From a virus, in IMG/VR virus record IMGVR_UViG_3300032323_002909, positions 64,001 to 128,000 of that record: a stretch of DNA of 64,000 nucleotides; one strand, given 5' to 3'. Each line of letters opens with the position of its first letter. Within the stretch, counting starts at the first letter, position 1. A program made the position numbers and the translations under genes. Positions 5,828 to 29,082 of this stretch are shown one piece after another. The notes under the pieces are model-generated. The model worked only from the letters and a program-made list of their open reading frames with translations, was not told where the DNA came from and did no database searches.

Positions 5828-7042
5828 TTAAATTATTTCAAATTTGGGACACGGCACAATAAATTTGCCACCTTTATTAACAAATTCTTTTTCCCTTTCG
5901 ACAAATTCGTTTATAAAATGCCAAGGTAATACTAATAAGAAATCTGGATTCGCTTTTCTCATTTCGTCTTCGGAATATATGGGAATGTTTGTTCCTACGG
6001 TATATAATCCCCACTTATCACGATTTCTTTCAGCAATTCCATCGATCATTGTATAGTCAAGTCCGAAATATTGTAATAAGGTATTACCTTTAGTGGACGC
6101 ACCATATCCCCATATAGTCTTACCCTTGGCTTTCTGTTCCGTAATAAATGAAACAGTTTTCATTTTTAATTCATTTATACGTTTGAAAAAATTAATCCAG
6201 ATGTCAACTTTATCCAACTCTAAAGATTTTTCATAAGCTAATATAGAATTCACCCTATATTTGGCAACATCTCTATACGGTTGAGTGCCAAAGGCTCTCA
6301 AGTCGGCATCATCTTTCATCGCATAAATTCTGAAAGATCCTCCATTGACATCGTTTAATTGACAATCAACTACTTGAAATCCATTTTTCTCTAAAATATT
6401 CTTGATATTGAACAGTGAGTAGTAATGCATATGTTCGTGACATATATTATCAAAAGCTAATTGTTCAATCATTAATGGGGTGTAACTCATCTGTAACACC
6501 CACAGACCGTTATCTTCTATTATATCATAAACATCTTTGATGAAAGGTGTTGGATTTTCCAAATCGTAAAACATTGCGATAGTGGTCACAACTTTAGCCT
6601 TCAAATGTCCAAATTTACTTTTCTTGAGTAATGATGCGTTGAAGTAATCTTGTATAATCAAATCTGCATGTTTTTCAGATTCTTGTTTATACGAATCATC
6701 TACTGGATCAATACCAATCCTAATTAAATTTTTAGGTAGATAACTGAGCAATGTTCCATCATTACATGCAATATCAACCCACATATCATTTTCTTTAAGT
6801 TTTATGACATCATGTATAGAGTTCACAATTCCCTCCAACTCTTTTTTCATCGTATGATTTATACCCGAACGATACCAATACTTGCCAAACATATCGCCTA
6901 ATGGCGTTTGTTTCTGTAATCTAACCGCGCCAGTCTCTTCATCTAGCATCATTTTTAATTCTACCTTTCCACCTCTAGATTCCTCTCCCTTGATTAAAAA
7001 ATCTGAAACGTATAGTTCACCTAATGTAAATAATTCTTTCAT
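5828..7042 (-). CDS. NDP-hexose C-methyltransferase (SAM-dependent)
   Basis: DIACNDGTLL, FDNICHEH, NGGSFR, GYGASTKGNTLL, PWHF. Confidence 0.85.
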   Translation of the reverse strand: MKELFTLGELYVSDFLIKGEESRGGKVELKMMLDEETGAVRLQKQTPLGDMFGKYWYRSGINHTMKKELEGIVNSIHDVIKLKENDMWVDIACNDGTLLSYLPKNLIRIGIDPVDDSYKQESEKHADLIIQDYFNASLLKKSKFGHLKAKVVTTIAMFYDLENPTPFIKDVYDIIEDNGLWVLQMSYTPLMIEQLAFDNICHEHMHYYSLFNIKNILEKNGFQVVDCQLNDVNGGSFRIYAMKDDADLRAFGTQPYRDVAKYRVNSILAYEKSLELDKVDIWINFFKRINELKMKTVSFITEQKAKGKTIWGYGASTKGNTLLQYFGLDYTMIDGIAERNRDKWGLYTVGTNIPIYSEDEMRKANPDFLLVLPWHFINEFVEREKEFVNKGGKFIVPCPKFEII

Positions 7043-7941
7043 AATCTAATTGTATCGTAATTTTTAATAAAATGCTTTATGGTTTCTTCCAAACCAACTC
7101 GTAATGTCGTGAATTCGTAATCTCCTATTATAGATTTTAAATATGAATTGTCAGATGGTTTCCTGAATTGCCCATCGGGTTTAGATGTGTCGAATATTAC
7201 GTCATTTTTGAAATCCATAATATCGCATATCATATCCACAACCTCTCTGATAGAAACTTCATTGGAAGTTGATAATATAATTGGAGATGTTCCGTCATAT
7301 TTATCCATCAATAATTTTATTATATTTGCAACGTCTTTTGCATAAATAAATTCTCTTAAAGCATTACCACTTCCCCAAACATGTAAATTGGTATTATTTA
7401 GTTTAGCCAAATAAACCTTATGTATTAAAGCAGGTATGACATGAGTATTTTCTAAATTATAATTATCATTAAGCCCATACATATTACATGGTATAACGGC
7501 AAAATATTTCGTGCCATATTGTTGATTATATGCTCGAAGTTGCACATCTACCATTCTCTTAGAGTAACCATATCCATAATTAGTTTCATGCGGTGGACCT
7601 AGATGGATCTTATCTTCTGTTAATGGATATTCAACGTCTGCGGGGAACACGCATGTAGAGAGAAACACTACCAGTTTTTCGACATTATTTATTCTACAAG
7701 ACTCAATAATGTTAGTATTGATCATCAAATTATCGTAGAAATATTCTCCCATAGCTGACATATTCCCACCTATACCGCCAACTTTAGCAGCACAATGTAT
7801 AACATGTGTTGGCTTATAAGTTTCAATCAACCTATTCGATTCTACAGGTATTCTTAAATCAAATTCTCTACCAACTTTAACATCGGCTTCTATCACAGAC
7901 CCTACTAATCCATGTCCTCCAGTAACTAATACTTTATCCAT
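7039..7941 (-). CDS. fcl: GDP-L-fucose synthase (Fcl/WcaG, ColC-like)
   Basis: VTGGHGLVG, AAKVGGI, STCVFP, YGYSK, HVIPAL, WGSG..REF, KPDG; start moved to the MDKVL ATG at 7941. Confidence 0.9.
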   Translation of the reverse strand: MDKVLVTGGHGLVGSVIEADVKVGREFDLRIPVESNRLIETYKPTHVIHCAAKVGGIGGNMSAMGEYFYDNLMINTNIIESCRINNVEKLVVFLSTCVFPADVEYPLTEDKIHLGPPHETNYGYGYSKRMVDVQLRAYNQQYGTKYFAVIPCNMYGLNDNYNLENTHVIPALIHKVYLAKLNNTNLHVWGSGNALREFIYAKDVANIIKLLMDKYDGTSPIILSTSNEVSIREVVDMICDIMDFKNDVIFDTSKPDGQFRKPSDNSYLKSIIGDYEFTTLRVGLEETIKHFIKNYDTIRL

Positions 7942-8824
7942 AAATCCCTGTTCTTTTTTTGTATTCATCGTGTTCGGCGACACACTCTTCCCATGAGAAT
8001 AAGTTACCATCTCGATCTAAATAATTGTGATTTCTGAAAATATTATACCCGCATGACCAATAACCATTAGATATATTGTAACGACCCCAATATTTAGGGG
8101 CTAAAATATACTTCACGGTATCACTTAGTAAAGTGGCGAAATACGGGAAACTAGAATTTGATAAAATCAAATAATGGGCATTTTTAATAATGGTAAAATC
8201 AGTTGCAATGTCGAAATGTTTCACTTCGAAATCGGGAAATTGTCTACTTGCTCTTTCTACATCATCAGTAATAACTACAAATTTAAAATCTGGATTAATT
8301 TTTCGCATTCTAGTAATCGCGTCATCCCAATACTTCCCATTTAAATGAAAATGTATAACACCTGCATATTCACCACCGCGATAATTGATAATACAAATAT
8401 TCGGATCGGAATAATCGTAGCAATCTTTTTCTGGTTTAATTTTTAACCATTGTCTAATTTCATCTTTACGATGAATAATTCGATCTTCTGATTGAAATAA
8501 TCCGTCAAGTTTGGTATTATCTTGAATCAATTCTAAATTTGGATCATCAATTGTTACATTTGAACCATTAGGAAGATACCACCACTTTTCTTTAAAATAA
8601 TTTTCAATTCCATTGGGAAGCGTGTGTGGCGGACCACCTTCTGGACCAGAACCCCCTTCGACAGGTAATCCAAAATCTAAATCCATAAAATCTAAGCATT
8701 TGAATTTATGAGGATTCATAATCCCAAAATCAAATCCTTTATCCTTAGCAACTACTCTCGTTGTCACATAACAAGCTAATTGATTGCCTAATCCCTGTCC
8801 ATTGTAAATTTCAGTTATTATCAT
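7934..8824 (-). CDS. GT11-like glycosyltransferase
   Basis: GQGLGNQL, GLFQSE, YRGGEY, LSNSSF. Confidence 0.8.
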   Translation of the reverse strand: MIITEIYNGQGLGNQLACYVTTRVVAKDKGFDFGIMNPHKFKCLDFMDLDFGLPVEGGSGPEGGPPHTLPNGIENYFKEKWWYLPNGSNVTIDDPNLELIQDNTKLDGLFQSEDRIIHRKDEIRQWLKIKPEKDCYDYSDPNICIINYRGGEYAGVIHFHLNGKYWDDAITRMRKINPDFKFVVITDDVERASRQFPDFEVKHFDIATDFTIIKNAHYLILSNSSFPYFATLLSDTVKYILAPKYWGRYNISNGYWSCGYNIFRNHNYLDRDGNLFSWEECVAEHDEYKKRTGIYG

Positions 8825-23668: not shown

Positions 23669-23697
23669 CAAAATAGATTGTGGAAATAGATAATATC

Positions 23698-24903
23698 ATG
23701 TTTCCACAATCTCCCTTTGCTGCATCTCCGTTTGTATCGCCCTTTCCTCAAAATATAATGATAGGTAAACCACCTGTTGAAAAAATTGAGAAACGCCATT
23801 CTTATTTAAATTTTTTAGCTGATCGACAAGGATGTGGACAATGGCGAATTGGGTGGGCAGAGAACCATATTAATATGTCAAATATGGGTGAATCAACATC
23901 CGTGACGAAAATGATTTTTGATAAAGGTTGGTATCGTGACATCACAACCGTTAAATTACAACGTCAAGCATCGACAATGCAAAAAGAATTTTTTCAATTT
24001 CTTAAAAGCATCCAAGAAGAAATGGGTTTCAAAATAATCTACGAAGTTGACGATGTTGTTTTTTATGAAGAAATTCCCGATTATAATATCTTCAAAGAAT
24101 CATTTGCTAATGACGAGATAAGACAAAATTGCGTGGATATGGTTAGAATGGCTGATGAGGTCACTGTTACATGCAAATATATGCGAGACCTGTTTATCGA
24201 GAAAACAGGACAGTTTAACATTTCAGCGGTTCCGAATTTCCCACCTGAGTGGTGGATAGGTCATCAATATGATTATAATCAGATTATTCATAATCATACT
24301 AAGCATAAAAATCGTCCAAGAATTTTGTATTCTGGTTCAGGTGCTCATTTTGATGTTAAAAATAATACAAATCAACAAGATGATTTTTCCCATGTGTTGA
24401 AATTTATAATAGATAATCGATACAAATATCAATTTATTTTCATTGGTTCTTACCCACCACCATTACATAAATATATTGAAAATAAAGAAATTGAATTTTA
24501 TCAGTGGCAAACTTTAATGAATTACCCTAAATTTATTTCATCTTTGAATGTTCAAATGTTATTAGCACCTTTAATGGATATACCATTCAACAGATCAAAA
24601 TCTGATATCAAATATATTGAAGGAGCATGTCTCGGTATTCCTTGTATGTGTCAAGACATGGTAACATATCAAGATACTCCAGATTTCCTTAAATTTAAGG
24701 ATTTTGAAGACTTGGCAATAAAGACTGAATATCTTTTAAATTGGAAGAATGATAAAAAATATTATCAACTTGTGAAACAATTAAGAAAATTAGGAGAAAC
24801 TAGATTTTTAGAAAGACCTGAAAATATAGGAGCTTTTATTGAAGCAATGAATACACCATTTGGCGACCCTAGTAGAAAATATTTGAGACCTTGGAATGAT
24901 TAA
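23698..24903 (+). CDS. GT-B fold glycosyltransferase
   Basis: GCGQWR, LQRQ, YEVDD, LAPL..FNRSKSDIKYIE. Confidence 0.8.
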   Translation: MFPQSPFAASPFVSPFPQNIMIGKPPVEKIEKRHSYLNFLADRQGCGQWRIGWAENHINMSNMGESTSVTKMIFDKGWYRDITTVKLQRQASTMQKEFFQFLKSIQEEMGFKIIYEVDDVVFYEEIPDYNIFKESFANDEIRQNCVDMVRMADEVTVTCKYMRDLFIEKTGQFNISAVPNFPPEWWIGHQYDYNQIIHNHTKHKNRPRILYSGSGAHFDVKNNTNQQDDFSHVLKFIIDNRYKYQFIFIGSYPPPLHKYIENKEIEFYQWQTLMNYPKFISSLNVQMLLAPLMDIPFNRSKSDIKYIEGACLGIPCMCQDMVTYQDTPDFLKFKDFEDLAIKTEYLLNWKNDKKYYQLVKQLRKLGETRFLERPENIGAFIEAMNTPFGDPSRKYLRPWND

Positions 24904-25190
24904 TCTTTAGTATCTCTAGTGAACTCGGAATATTGAGCTAGAGTTGGTCGAAGGCGTTCAAACATAGCTTTTAAATTGTCATACGGTGTCTTATTCGAAG
25001 GATTATTGAAAAATCTCTCTCTGTTGTTTTGATAATAAGCTATTGTCCCTTTTAAATATGTTTCAATAGCTGCTGAAATTTTATGCATTTCAGCTATCAT
25101 CCCTTCGGTCAAAGCGTCATAATTATCATATGATGATTGAAAATCTAAACTTTCATAAATCTTGCTCAAGTCTTCAAAATACTTATCCAT
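24900..25190 (-). CDS. late protein, putative internal head protein
   Basis: TAAATA 5 nt upstream; DLSKIYES N-terminus. Confidence 0.6.
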   Translation of the reverse strand: MDKYFEDLSKIYESLDFQSSYDNYDALTEGMIAEMHKISAAIETYLKGTIAYYQNNRERFFNNPSNKTPYDNLKAMFERLRPTLAQYSEFTRDTKD

Positions 25191-25258
25191 GATATTATTT
25201 ATCTTACATGATGACTTTTAAATAAAAATGATTTCTATTAAATACTAAATATATATAA

Positions 25259-25903
25259 ATGAGAAGTAGCGATTATTTTTTAGAAATTTCAAATATTTAT
25301 TCGAGGATCATAAATGAATCCCCTGATAATATTACAATTATTGACGATAATGGTGATCATAAAAATATATCGTATTATAACACACCAGATGCCTACACTG
25401 GTCTTATCGGTAGTGATGGTGAATATGTCTTGTCGAAAGATATTATAGGTCATAGTAATTTAATCGATCATATTTTACATCATGGAGAAGATATTATTCA
25501 AAAGTTAATAACCAATCTTGATGATATATATGATTTGCAAAGATTGGTTAGAGAAAGAATAAAAATAAGAATTTGGAAAAATCAAAAAGTTTTTAGTATG
25601 TGGGATTATTACAAGCCTTCATACGAAACTGCCATCAAAAATTCCTTAAAAGCTATAGGTCAAAATTATAAACAATATAGATATGATAATGAATACAAAG
25701 ATTATAATGACATGCCTTTATACGATACTTTTTTCGTAAATAGTTTAACGGATGAACAAAAAGAAGAGAACACGATGGCAGCAATGAAAAAAATTGAAGC
25801 AGAAAGAGCTTTAATGGATAAAATAGCTGGCGCTAGACAAAGACCATCGAATGGTGAAACGCCTTACAGAAAACCTTCTTGGATGAATAGAGAAGGGGAT
25901 TAA
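25259..25903 (+). CDS. late protein, putative internal head protein
   Basis: TAAATA 7 nt upstream; EISNIYSRIINE-S N-terminus. Confidence 0.65.
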   Translation: MRSSDYFLEISNIYSRIINESPDNITIIDDNGDHKNISYYNTPDAYTGLIGSDGEYVLSKDIIGHSNLIDHILHHGEDIIQKLITNLDDIYDLQRLVRERIKIRIWKNQKVFSMWDYYKPSYETAIKNSLKAIGQNYKQYRYDNEYKDYNDMPLYDTFFVNSLTDEQKEENTMAAMKKIEAERALMDKIAGARQRPSNGETPYRKPSWMNREGD

Positions 25904-25962
25904 TATTAGCAATCTTTGTGTTTATAGCTTGCTATTTGAAATAAGGGTGATAAATAAACAAC

Positions 25963-26244
25963 ATGTCTAATAATATCCAAAACAACGATAAGCACATCCA
26001 CGGTGATGTGCAAGCCACTAATGTAACAGAAGCGACTACGCCGTTGGATGATGCGTCTTGTTGTGCTTCGGATTTTCAAGCTAGAAAGGATGCTGTATGC
26101 CGAGAATTGGTCGAACATCTAAGAAACATTCCGAGACAACAACCAGTAGGTGAAGAAATCCAAACCGTCTGGACACCATTTGTGGAGAAATTCAAAGAAA
26201 TAGGGAAACGATTCGATGAATCATTCAGAGGAATCTCCCAATGA
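25963..26244 (+). CDS. hypothetical protein whose N-terminus is encoded across an attC-like site
   Basis: TAAATA 6 nt upstream; the frame reads through repeat copy 1 (NNDKHIHG...PLDDASC). Confidence 0.5.
   Translation: MSNNIQNNDKHIHGDVQATNVTEATTPLDDASCCASDFQARKDAVCRELVEHLRNIPRQQPVGEEIQTVWTPFVEKFKEIGKRFDESFRGISQ
25980..26066 (-). repeat. attC-like site, copy 1 (87 bp)
   Basis: Minus strand: GCACAAC-AAGAC-GCATCATCCAACGG...CCGTGGATGTGC-TTATC-GTTGTTT. Confidence 0.7.
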
Positions 26245-26444
26245 CATCGACAATTCCAATATAATTTCTTCAATTTTTTGTTTGATCTTCTCCTTAATAT
26301 GATCAGGAACTTCCGCACTATTCAACTTTTCGGTTAAAGTATCGATTTGTTTGATTGTTCTTTCGTAATTTGCCATACGCTTGTTATTTGCGCTCGCGAT
26401 GATAAATCATAACGGAGGAGTGTCTAGGGGATTATTTGGCACAA
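25986..26444 (-). mobile_element. putative 459-bp integron-type gene cassette
   Basis: Bounded by two attC-like sites 459 bp apart; the cassette-start R' GTTGTGC is the exact reverse complement of the cassette-end R'' GCACAAC. Confidence 0.65.
26221..26376 (-). CDS. 51-aa helical protein inside the cassette (not in the ORF track)
   Basis: MANYERTIKQIDTLTEKLNSAEVPDHIKEKIKQKIEEIILELSMSLGDSSE; upstream TAGACA-N16-TATCAT at 26426-26399. Confidence 0.6.
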   Translation of the reverse strand: MANYERTIKQIDTLTEKLNSAEVPDHIKEKIKQKIEEIILELSMSLGDSSE

Positions 26445-26525
26445 CGATAAGCACATCCACGGTGATGTGCAAGACCCAAATGTGACAGAAGCGACTACAC
26501 CGTTGGATGATGCGGCTTGTTGACA
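26439..26525 (-). repeat. attC-like site, copy 2 (87 bp)
   Basis: Minus strand: TGTCAAC-AAGCC-GCATCATCCAACGG...CCGTGGATGTGC-TTATC-GTTGTGC; 6 mismatches to copy 1 over the 79-bp AAC..GTT core. Confidence 0.7.
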
Positions 26526-26547
26526 TTCATGATGTTTGTGTTATACT
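26520..26547 (+). promoter_or_regulatory. sigma70-type promoter of the DNA polymerase gene
   Basis: TTGACA-N16-TATACT, 6 nt before the ATG at 26554. Confidence 0.75.
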
Positions 26548-26553
26548 CGATCC

Positions 26554-29082
26554 ATGTCTTATAGAAATTGTGTGTATAACAACCGTGAACAAAAGATTTT
26601 TTTATGGACTTGGAATGATAATGGTGAGAGGGTTAAAGAGGAATGGGATTTCAAGCCATACATTCTACTAGAAGATAAAAATGGTGATGAAAAATCTATT
26701 TACGGCACCAAATTAAAGAAAAAAGAATTCAATAGTGGGTATGATCGTAATCAATTTATAAAAGATAGTAATATCAAAAGAATTTACGAGAACCTACCAC
26801 CTTACCAACAATTCTTAATTGACAATTATTGGTTTGTGTGCGAAAACGACGAATTTTCACAACATCCATTAAAAGTTGCTTATTTAGACTTGGAAAACCC
26901 GAAGGCAGATGGGTTCCCTGATCCTGTATTGGCAGATTCGGTTATCAACTTGATAACTTGCTACGATTCCTTCAGCAAAATATATCATGTATTCGGTTTG
27001 AAAAATTTCCATACGACGAGAGATGATGTGAAATATTATTGGTGTAAATCCGAACACGATTTGTTGAAATCTTTTATTAAATTCTTTAGAAAAGAAGAGT
27101 TTGATGTCATCACATCATGGAACGGTGCAGCATACGATATACCCACGTTAGTGAATCGTGTTACGTTTGAATTGGGTAAAGAATGGGCTGATAAATTATC
27201 CCCAATTGGAAGGATTTATGAGAAGACTAATCCCACTGGTAAATTTGGTATGCCCACCAAAGAATATGTCATCGAGGGTATTTCATCATTGGACTACTAT
27301 GTGATATATCAAAAATTTAATTTGGAAAAACAAGAGTCATATAAACTCGATCATATCGGAGAGGTAGAACTCGGCATTAACAAAATCCAACACGAAGGTA
27401 ATTTGTGGGAACTTTCCAAAAACGATTGGTATACTTACACCAACTACAACATACGAGATGTTGAAATTTTGGTAAAACTAGAAGAGAAAAAGGGTTATAT
27501 TTCACTATTGCGTTTCCTCGCATACACAGGATTGTGTGATTTGGAAAATGCTATCAAGACTGTCCCTCCTATGAATGGAGCTATCGCCATACGTGCGCGT
27601 ATGCGTGGAGAGTATATTCCCACTTTCATACGTCCAGTCACTGACTACAAAGCACCAGGTGGATACGTAGCAGATCCACGTATTGGATTTGCTGAAGATA
27701 TTGTATCATTCGATGCCAATTCGCTATACCCATCTGTAATGATATCTTTGAATTTATCACCAGAGACTAAAATAGGTAGGGTTGAAAAAATTAATGATAT
27801 CATCAAAATCCATCATGTATCGGGTCGAATTTTTGAGATGTCTTCGGATAATTTTAAGAAATATATCACCGAAGAAAAAGCATCATTGACAAAAGCTGGT
27901 TTCTTATTCTCGCAGAAAAAAGTTGGATTGGTTCCCGAATTCTTGGACAACCTTTACACCAAACGTAAAGAAATGAAGGGTAAAATGTTGGATTGTAGAA
28001 AAAAAGGCGATAAAGAGGGCGAACAAAAATTCGATACTATCCAGTATGCCTATAAAATTCACCTTAATTCTTTATATGGTTACATGTTAAACAAATATGC
28101 CCCCATGGGTGATGAAGACATAGGAACATCTGTTACTCTAACTGGTCAAGCTGTAATCAAAAAGAGTAATGAATTATTTTTGGATTACATGACACAGAGA
28201 CTCAACACTACTGTCGATATTGAAAAATCATTGATATACAACGATACTGACGCATTATATGTCTCGTTGAGCATGTTGAAAGCTAAAGGTTTGGTGTTGA
28301 AAGATGGTGATAAGGTATCGACAGAATTTTACAAAGAGTGTCAGGATATTGAAAATCACATCAATAGCGGTATTAACAAATGGGCTATCAAGAGTTTGAG
28401 AAGTAATGACCCTAGATTTGTATTCAAACGTGAATCCATTTGTGACCGTGGTATCTTCATTGGTAAGAAATATTATGTCCTACACACTCTCGACGAAGAA
28501 GGTGTCGTTACTGATAAATTCAAATATAAAGGCGTTGATGTTGTTAAAACTACTATGCCTAAAAAGGTCAAACCATATGTCAAGAAAGTCATTGAGCATA
28601 TGATCCTATCAAAATCGTTGAAAGAAACCAACGATATTTTCAATGAAGCATACGAAGCATTTAAAAATTTATCAATTGAGGAAATATCCAAAATATCTGG
28701 CATGAATAATTATGCAGAATATTCTGCAAGATGTAATGGTATGACAACCTGTAAAGGTATGCCATCTCATTTAAAAGCCGCATATTATCATGATTTAATT
28801 TTAGACCAAGTTGGATTGGTATCGAAATATGATAAATTTAAAACTGGTGATAAGGTTCGAATCGTATACGTGAAAAAACCCAATCGTTATGATATTGATA
28901 TGATAGGATTCAAAGACCGATGGATACCAGAATATGATAATATTTTCAAGGTGGATTATGAAAAAATGTTTGGTAAAATATTCTATGCTGCCATCGAAAG
29001 ATTTTATAATGCCGTAAGGTGGACATTACGAAAACCAACTGAAAACTTAGTCGTTGAAATTGAGGATATTTTTGGAGAATAA
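26554..29082 (+). CDS. 43: family B DNA polymerase gp43
   Basis: Exonuclease motifs YLDLE, WNG..YD, YNIRD; polymerase motifs DANSLYP, KIHLNSLYG, YNDTD, KKYY. Confidence 0.97.
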   Translation: MSYRNCVYNNREQKIFLWTWNDNGERVKEEWDFKPYILLEDKNGDEKSIYGTKLKKKEFNSGYDRNQFIKDSNIKRIYENLPPYQQFLIDNYWFVCENDEFSQHPLKVAYLDLENPKADGFPDPVLADSVINLITCYDSFSKIYHVFGLKNFHTTRDDVKYYWCKSEHDLLKSFIKFFRKEEFDVITSWNGAAYDIPTLVNRVTFELGKEWADKLSPIGRIYEKTNPTGKFGMPTKEYVIEGISSLDYYVIYQKFNLEKQESYKLDHIGEVELGINKIQHEGNLWELSKNDWYTYTNYNIRDVEILVKLEEKKGYISLLRFLAYTGLCDLENAIKTVPPMNGAIAIRARMRGEYIPTFIRPVTDYKAPGGYVADPRIGFAEDIVSFDANSLYPSVMISLNLSPETKIGRVEKINDIIKIHHVSGRIFEMSSDNFKKYITEEKASLTKAGFLFSQKKVGLVPEFLDNLYTKRKEMKGKMLDCRKKGDKEGEQKFDTIQYAYKIHLNSLYGYMLNKYAPMGDEDIGTSVTLTGQAVIKKSNELFLDYMTQRLNTTVDIEKSLIYNDTDALYVSLSMLKAKGLVLKDGDKVSTEFYKECQDIENHINSGINKWAIKSLRSNDPRFVFKRESICDRGIFIGKKYYVLHTLDEEGVVTDKFKYKGVDVVKTTMPKKVKPYVKKVIEHMILSKSLKETNDIFNEAYEAFKNLSIEEISKISGMNNYAEYSARCNGMTTCKGMPSHLKAAYYHDLILDQVGLVSKYDKFKTGDKVRIVYVKKPNRYDIDMIGFKDRWIPEYDNIFKVDYEKMFGKIFYAAIERFYNAVRWTLRKPTENLVVEIEDIFGE

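Follow-up and report, generated by a model that had tools for sequence, protein, structure and literature searches.

An Integron-Type Gene Cassette and its attC Sites Upstream of the DNA Polymerase Gene of a T4-like Phage

Introduction

Gene cassettes of integrons travel on plasmids and transposons. Phage genomes carry them too, as first reported in 2023: when 10,705 such genomes from isolates or GenBank were screened with IntegronFinder/HattCI, 17 clusters of attC sites lacking an integrase (CALINs) were found, some of them in virulent phages, and IntI1 was shown experimentally to recombine five of these phage sites (Qi et al., 2023, Front Microbiol, PMC9892861). The locus described here is a pair of direct repeats in a 64,000-nt stretch of viral DNA, called the window below, which makes up bases 64001-128000 of the 150,461-bp IMG/VR record IMGVR_UViG_3300032323_002909. 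The 459 bp between the crossover points of the two repeats is a gene cassette; it lies in a lytic T4-like freshwater myophage, immediately ahead of the promoter of the DNA polymerase gene. As the record encodes no integrase, the locus is a CALIN and not a complete integron. The CALINs found by Qi et al. (2023) in virulent phages mean that this kind of locus is already known.

The geometry of attC sites follows a published rule (Nivina et al., 2016, PMC5027507). On the bottom strand the 5' arm carries an R' box reading RYYYAAC and the 3' arm an R'' box reading GTTRRRY, the unpaired spacers are 5-6 nt long, and the total length is 57-141 nt. Extrahelical bases are found opposite the AAC arm at positions 16 and 23/24 with a 6-bp stem between them, and the distal one is a conserved T. 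Integron integrases are also able to insert cassettes at non-att genomic sites (attG) in bacterial chromosomes (Loot et al., bioRxiv 10.1101/2022.09.11.507474). For T4-type phages another kind of repeated element has been described, the early promoter stem-loop (PeSL), where a stable terminator hairpin is followed by an AT-rich region and an early sigma-70 promoter and homologous exchange takes place anywhere within the motif (Arbiol et al., 2010, PMC2839356; Comeau et al., 2014, PMC4122927).

Structure of the Two Repeats

A repeat search of the window identifies two direct repeats of 82 nt at 25982-26063 and 26441-26522, which are 93% identical and have a start-to-start spacing of 459, and according to BLAST these are the only two copies in the entire record. 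The full sites are 87 nt each and cover 25980-26066 and 26439-26525. A preliminary description of the locus had reported two 87-nt repeats 459 bp apart, which is borne out by both searches, and its minus-strand layout is correct, being the reverse complement of the plus-strand layout used here. On the plus strand both sites start with a 7-mer ending in AAC, followed by 5 nt, GCACATCCACGG and a 37-nt loop. The 3' part reads CCG-T-TGGATG-A-TGC, 5 nt, and GTT plus 4 nt.

Site 1 (25980-26066) lies on the plus strand, which is the recombinogenic "bottom" strand. It has AAACAAC as R' and GTTGTGC as R'', with the spacers GATAA and GTCTT, and its stem is formed by GCA-CATCCA-CGG and CCG-T-TGGATG-A-TGC on each side of the 37-nt loop. 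In the canonical orientation it is the attC of a cassette with a minus-strand gene to its right. Site 2 (26439-26525, plus strand) has the same stems, GCACAAC as R', the spacers GATAA and GGCTT, and GTTGACA as R''; the last six bases of this R'' double as the -35 box of the polymerase promoter. The 7-mer closing site 1 and the one opening site 2, GTTGTGC and GCACAAC, are exact reverse complements of each other, while the outer boxes AAACAAC and GTTGACA differ.

There are six differences between the sites. Four are found in the loop, three of them in GCCACT/GACCCA and one in GTA/GTG. One changes T.G to T-A at the pair adjoining the stem (ACG/ACA), and the last is in the 3' spacer (GTCTT/GGCTT). 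Both this distribution over loop, spacer and a wobble pair and the complementarity of the inner but not the outer boxes are as claimed in the preliminary description.

Folding with DNA parameters gives the long-range 6-bp stem between the bulges a mean pair probability of 0.90 on the plus strand at both sites. A local hairpin formed by GCACATC and GATGTGC had been named as a competitor that, if it dominated the fold, would speak against attC function. Its pair probability is 0.00-0.01 at both sites, and the minimum free energy and centroid folds agree with the long-range bulged stem.

Fit to the attC Geometry

When the sites are read inward from the 3' end of the plus strand, the box occupies positions 1-7 and the spacer 8-12, followed by three pairs and A16, and then by six pairs, T23 and another three pairs. 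This fits the published rule exactly, with the plus strand as the bottom strand. The 87-nt sites of the window have 37-nt loops and central spacers of 5/5 nt (GATAA with GTCTT or GGCTT), while related sites in other phages are 85-126 nt long with spacers of 5/5 or 6/5 nt and varied sequence. The 7-mers of the window match RYYYAAC/GTTRRRY at six of seven positions, except AAACAAC, which matches at five. Both window sites have A16 and T23, and T23 is invariant across all stem types.

A geometric scanner was written for the attC rule and tried on regions adjoining integron integrases of Verrucomicrobiota; the integron integrase model TIGR02249 has matches in 86 of 301 sampled genomes. Beside one integrase gene (region L127) the 16 sites detected by the scanner are all on a single strand, and in a second region, L112, it gave a one-stranded series, amounting to eight sites at a looser setting. 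All of these control sites have T23. The attC architecture proposed in the preliminary description thus equals the published rule, and the same geometry is displayed by arrays next to integrases when the same scanner is used. The AAC and GTT triplets are present in both window sites and in all sites of the phage family recovered by the scanner.

A strict scan of the phage genome returns exactly these two sites, compared to 0.55 expected per shuffled genome, so the pattern by itself is no more than moderately specific. What makes the attC identification strong is repetition, covariation and context. An Rfam scan of the window region gave nothing relevant; as it was also empty on two real integrase-adjacent regions, it is uninformative as a test for attC sites.

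Related Sites in Other T4-like Phages

Further copies were gathered by searching T4-like contigs with the two arms and the encoded peptide. The same geometry combined with different stem sequences is found at no fewer than 23 distinct sites in related T4-like contigs, in neighborhoods that include genes for gp25, baseplate, clamp, gp32, primase and tail sheath proteins. The 187,848-bp JGI contig Ga0502770_0000007 by itself contains at least three arrays. The stem versions include GCA-CATCCA-CGG, GCA-CACATA-CGC, GTC-CATCCA-GCC or GTC-CATCCA-CCC, GGT-GTGGCA-CAG and GAG-CATCCA-GCC, and every version has a matching 3' arm and identical bulge positions, spacer lengths and AAC/GTT triplets. No related sequence turned up when the locus was compared by blastn with 50,697 phage records.

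In an alignment of 23 phage sites the 12-pair stem is 98.2% paired, and in seven of the 12 pairs both sides have changed. The covariation score is 0.357, compared to 0.136 in shuffled alignments, none of 500 of which reach the observed value, and it is at most 0.086 when the partner is slid. In one type of site the codon phase of the 5' arm differs from that of the others, and the nucleotides and the pairing are nonetheless retained. This shows that the constraint is on the nucleic acid and not on the protein.

A covariance model, R1, was trained on phage sites only. Site 1 obtains 84.5 bits (E 5.6e-29) and site 2 81.8 bits, both having been among the training sequences. When R1 was applied to 73 IMG/VR loci encoding relatives of integron integrases it gave 20 hits with E values from 6e-14 to 0.04. 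All 20 share the strand of the integrase gene, the opposite strand being free of hits, and wherever the coordinates were checked they are located upstream of IntI. On the real array L112 the four best hits with the filters turned off are attC sites on the correct strand, with weak scores; with default filters the model missed the generic attC sites of this array.

Across 18 polymerase-related T4-like contigs R1 gave one weak hit. It is found at G002:C1:145116-145204 in a complete relative of 197,682 bp, where it is the single match (28 bits, E 3.5e-7). This phage otherwise lacks the family, and the match may be a solo or decayed attC site.

Cassette Boundaries and Signs of Movement

The cassette is placed at 25986-26444, which is 459 bp, with the crossover between A and C of each AAC. 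Its ends are inferred by combining the published cleavage point (PMC5027507) with the 7/7 complementarity of the boxes. Circularization would give the cassette an attC with a perfect 7-bp R box, GCACAAC/GTTGTGC. Insertion of a circular cassette at AA|C implies that the box closing one site must complement the box opening the next. Such complementarity is perfect (7/7) in the window and in 11 of the 17 adjacent phage pairs, compared to 4.0 when the boxes are permuted. The linked boxes comprise five sequences (GTGC, AGCT, CGTC, CTCC, and CGGC), and five of nine distinct box combinations match when 1.1 would be expected (P ~8e-4). The complementarity of R' and R'', which the preliminary description took to be a scar of cassette integration, accordingly recurs with five different 7-mers. 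The real array L112 has a similar mix of perfect and imperfect box links.

Within each phage array the sites are co-oriented on one strand. Other observations also point to movement. The same cassette, 96% identical over 598 nt, is found beside the polymerase gene in one phage contig (L004) and beside gp25 in another (L063). Moreover, phages that share only 36-74% identity in their core proteins have attC sites that are 92-100% identical.

A Bacterial Counterpart

A degenerate two-arm pattern was searched for in 185,579 species genomes. It gave one chance match and one true match, the latter in a metagenome-assembled genome (MAG) of Spartobacteria (locus L097), and these attC sequences are thus rare among sequenced bacteria. 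According to the preliminary description, a lack of similar sites in bacterial cassette arrays would have counted against integron-type cassettes; the Spartobacteria genome contains one such array. Its three attC sites are co-oriented, and each adjoins the 3' end of a minus-strand ORF (open reading frame); the cargo consists of an HNH-LprI protein, a 460-amino-acid STAND/NB-ARC NTPase and an 83-amino-acid protein. The third site belongs to the phage attC family and scores 74 bits with R1. The 83-amino-acid cargo is homologous to the cargo of phage cassettes in L004, L063, and L089 and to that of the metagenome contig L116, where the copy is likewise flanked by linked attC sites. It has almost no other relatives and no meaningful match in Pfam or PHROG.

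The array covers positions 4451-7300 of L097, which correspond to approximately 44.4-47.3 kb of G004:C1 in the Spartobacteria MAG CANKWU010000001. The HNH-LprI and STAND/NB-ARC cargo is defence-like, and it is located beside the small cassette shared with phages. No integron integrase was detected in the MAG, which is incomplete at 2.0 Mb. The nearest tyrosine recombinase, encoded 7 kb from the bacterial copy, was considered as a candidate and rejected, as it is XerC-like.

There are weak hints that the host or donor lineage belongs to Verrucomicrobiota: a copy is present in the MAG, verrucomicrobial arrays resemble the phage sites in their spacer and box sequences, and the phage encodes a PEP-CTERM protein. 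The latter is a 167-amino-acid ORF (G000:C1:5556-5624, outside the window) that ends in a PEP-CTERM motif scoring 21.7 bits, just above the Pfam cut-off. This motif hints at a host with an exosortase system.

Contents of the Cassette

The cassette contains a cargo ORF of 51 amino acids at 26221-26376 on the minus strand, which is the top strand of attC. Its stop codon is located 155 nt ahead of attC site 1, and the ORF is thus on the top strand upstream of its own attC, as in canonical cassettes and in those of the relatives. A sigma-70-like promoter for this ORF is found at 26399-26426 on the minus strand (TAGACA, 16 nt, TATCAT), within a block of approximately 70 nt that is conserved at the same cassette end in other phages. 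The cargo ORF has almost no relatives, and neither Pfam nor PHROG gives a meaningful match, only a sub-threshold one that is CD1375-like.

Two alternative conserved blocks of about 60-70 nt precede attC sites, with examples at 5342-5400 in L004, 521-580 in L063, 26379-26445 in the window and 6160-6238 in L065. One has ATG-TCT-AAT-AAT and a duplicated AAACAAC, the other AGGAGG, 6 nt and ATG-GCA-CAA-C. Both contain the -10 box of the cargo promoter on the opposite strand and a GATAAAT motif that resembles a T4-type late promoter.

A second ORF, encoding 93 amino acids, reads through attC site 1 on the plus strand (25963-26244). It starts 17 nt before the site and ends inside the cassette, and its residues ~9-36 are encoded by attC. 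Twelve homologues have the attC-encoded N-terminus in common and unrelated C-termini, and the invariant N-terminus of these twelve proteins reads HIHGDV..NVTEATTPLDDA.C.AS. One of the variable C-terminal regions is conserved at the protein level between cassettes with different attC types, and the 93-amino-acid ORF is therefore probably a real gene. It has no informative family match, and its model in the structure atlas is of low confidence.

The family as a whole consists of proteins of ~80-120 amino acids in which the N-terminal ~30 residues are encoded by attC and end in D-A-x-C-x-A-S, followed by unrelated C-terminal parts. Each member converges on and overlaps a small ORF on the opposite strand, and such a pair of convergent ORFs may be a two-gene module, for instance a toxin/antitoxin or an effector with its partner. 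A role for the shared N-terminus as a capsid-targeting leader, a lipoprotein signal or the leader of a ribosomally synthesized and post-translationally modified peptide was considered and found to be unsupported; constraints at the nucleotide level explain the conservation.

Genomic Setting

The record represents a T4-like myophage, as it encodes a Gp23 capsid protein and a family-B polymerase matching phrog_262. The repeats are found in the gap that separates the DNA polymerase gene (26554-29082) from a glycosyltransferase gene (23680-24903). In relatives this gap is approximately 100 bp (L021), 430 bp (L005), or 1500 bp of unrelated DNA (L003); the polymerase of L003 is 98% identical to that of the window. 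The gap in L004 holds four repeat copies with three different inserts, compared to one cassette in the window. The gap (24903-26554) is thus hyperplastic, varying from ~100 bp to 1.65 kb among the window, L003, L004, L005, and L021. It also contains a 214-amino-acid ORF (25259-25903), found only in the window and without any family match.

The DNA polymerase promoter is located at 26520-26547 on the plus strand (TTGACA, 16 nt, TG-n-TATACT). The ATG at 26554 follows after 6 nt, and the promoter constitutes the right-hand junction of the mobile unit. Relatives without the repeat have the same arrangement, showing that the promoter is native and lies outside the mobile unit. In the window and in nearly all relatives (L003-L050) the polymerase start is found 6-8 nt after the -10 box without a Shine-Dalgarno sequence, and early mRNAs in this phage group may accordingly be leaderless or nearly so. 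Another array-bearing T4-like contig, L080, has a 610-amino-acid HNH homing-endonuclease-like gene at 6218-8050, between baseplate and tail-sheath genes.

Proposed Mobilization and Alternative Explanations

It is quite likely that the repeats delimit genuine integron-type cassettes that are still being exchanged by an integrase acting in trans. An integron integrase supplied by the host would then excise and insert the cassettes, acting on the folded plus strand once replication or recombination of the phage exposes single-stranded DNA. The first cassette might have been seeded at a secondary GTT site, for instance G|TTGACA of the promoter. Homologous recombination of the phage, which certainly contributes, would additionally swap segments between near-identical sites.

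Several observations weigh against such exchange by an integrase. The preliminary description had noted that no integrase is encoded in the window, and this holds for the whole record: neither a tyrosine recombinase (PF00589), a Y1 transposase nor a serine recombinase is found in its 150 kb (73% complete), and tyrosine recombinases are also absent from four other array-bearing phage contigs. The R boxes deviate from the RYYYAAC/GTTRRRY consensus at one position, and the extrahelical base 16 is A, whereas G is usual in mobile integrons. Perfect box complementarity is absent in six of the 17 adjacent pairs. Variants within the sites occur in all four combinations, which means that exchange also happens inside sites; as these variants are mosaic, the crossover point could not be mapped from them. 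Together with the conserved ~70-nt promoter block the sites make up ~170 nt of homology that could be used by phage recombination alone. In a comparison of L004 with L063 the body of the cassette goes with the right-hand site and not with the one that should accompany it. No cassette belongs to the rightmost site. Finally, translation of the plus-strand ORF through the site could explain part of the sequence conservation.

Much of this would also fit an alternative that appears unlikely, although not negligibly so, in which the sites are attC by descent and now inert for integrase. An ancestral phage would have acquired a piece of a host cassette array, and the near-identical sites, along with the conserved promoter block, would since have served solely as portable homology for phage recombination, which shuffles the bodies between them. 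This would agree with the lack of an integrase in every phage contig examined, with the four-gamete pattern of variants and the exchange within sites that it shows, with the conserved block adjoining the sites, and with the pairs lacking a perfect box link. In T4-type phages, reshuffling of ORFs between short repeats and the formation of mini-circles are also known to take place with no dedicated recombinase (PMC2839356). Perfect complementarity with five different 7-mers would, however, be hard to create or maintain by homologous exchange, and some linked junctions, such as GTTCGTC/GACGAAC and GTTCTCC/GGAGAAC in L062, lack the conserved block. The stems have diversified by compensatory change while bulges, spacer lengths and AAC/GTT have stayed fixed, which indicates continuing selection on a structure recognized by a protein. 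The arrays are, moreover, found at many unrelated genome positions. Exchange by an integrase in trans is the reading preferred here.

Two further explanations are far less probable. It is highly improbable that the locus is a regulatory cassette of the PeSL type, a stem-loop terminator with an early promoter whose likeness to attC is coincidental. A strong sigma-70 promoter does follow immediately after site 2, the locus lies in a hyperplastic region, and a short terminator-like hairpin is predicted on the minus strand. That promoter is, however, native to the polymerase and present in relatives without the repeat, the internal sites have no downstream promoter, and the conserved structure is a long-range bulged stem instead of a G+C-rich terminator hairpin. 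A model built from the phage sites also finds real integron attC, and the same family occurs in a bacterial array. The explanation given the least credence is that the repeat encodes a conserved N-terminus shared by small paralogous proteins, which would make the hairpin incidental. The invariant N-terminus in twelve proteins and the location of several differences between copies at third codon positions would agree with this. Sites A and D of L004 and site 2 of the window, however, have in-frame stops or no start codon, one type reads the 5' arm in another frame with nucleotides and pairing kept, and the stems covary. The AAC/GTT boxes, the constant spacers and the linked boxes of neighboring sites would also be left unexplained by selection at the protein level. 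As the sole explanation the coding reading is contradicted; it survives as an added layer, in which attC has been co-opted as coding sequence. Transposon ends of the IS200/IS605 type, subterminal bulged hairpins on which a Y1 (HUH) transposase acts, were also considered; the record contains no such transposase (PF01797), and the sites fit the integron geometry instead.

Going beyond the single locus, it can tentatively be proposed that a freshwater T4-like lineage maintains a circulating pool of phage-adapted cassettes, which would be inserted at many intergenic positions by means of host integrases borrowed in the course of lytic infection. The cassettes of this pool would combine homogeneous attC sites with a promoter of their own and with a second protein that has an attC-encoded N-terminus. 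Should this speculative proposal be true, integron recombination would be a general engine for the turnover of hyperplastic regions in large virulent phages, and it would provide a two-way channel for cassette exchange with bacterial integrons, possibly those of Verrucomicrobiota.

Comparison with Known Systems

The locus adds natural-history evidence for real movement of cassettes in phages. It leads to testable questions about the action of integron integrases on replicating phage DNA during the lytic cycle, and about a trade of small accessory genes between phages and integrons; the genes traded possibly have functions in defence or counter-defence. It also places another mechanism beside homologous exchange of the PeSL type for the plasticity of hyperplastic regions in T4-like phages.

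PeSL elements resemble the present locus in that repeated stem-loops flank orphan ORFs in hyperplastic regions, exchange between the repeats alters the gene content, and no dedicated recombinase is encoded. Unlike PeSL, the window sites have attC geometry and no intrinsic promoter, and the junctions are found at a fixed point. Insertion at attG sites offers a possible way of entry into a genome without attI; in the window, the junction on the right is G|TTGACA, a native promoter box that contains GTT.

The sedentary chromosomal arrays L127 and L112 from Verrucomicrobiota, which adjoin TIGR02249 integrases, are similar to the phage sites with respect to spacers of 6/5 or 5/5, the base at position 16, T23 and the 6-bp stem, and they have similar spacer and box sequences (GTCAAA, GTCCTA, GCCTT, GCCGAAC, and GTTCGGC). 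Their cassettes of ~400-600 bp are encoded opposite the bottom strand, the sites are near-identical within a lineage, and the boxes of neighbors are linked. In contrast to these arrays, the phage arrays lack integrase, attI and Pc, hold one to three cassettes and are themselves scattered over several genome positions. The phage cassettes further have a promoter of their own and a convergent second ORF that runs through attC.

The closest counterparts are the CALINs of Qi et al. (2023). Like these, the present locus has two or more co-oriented attC sites flanking small ORFs in a lytic phage without integrase, and the route proposed for both is a bacterial IntI acting in trans. It differs from them in that the attC family is homogeneous, is spread over several loci in several diverged T4-like phages and is known from sequence alone. 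Further differences are the box linkage, the presence of the same cassette at two loci, and the occurrence of both the attC and the cargo family in a bacterial array. The locus offers unusually clear comparative evidence, and its unusual traits are the self-promoted cassettes, the translated attC and the presence at many loci of large lytic phages.

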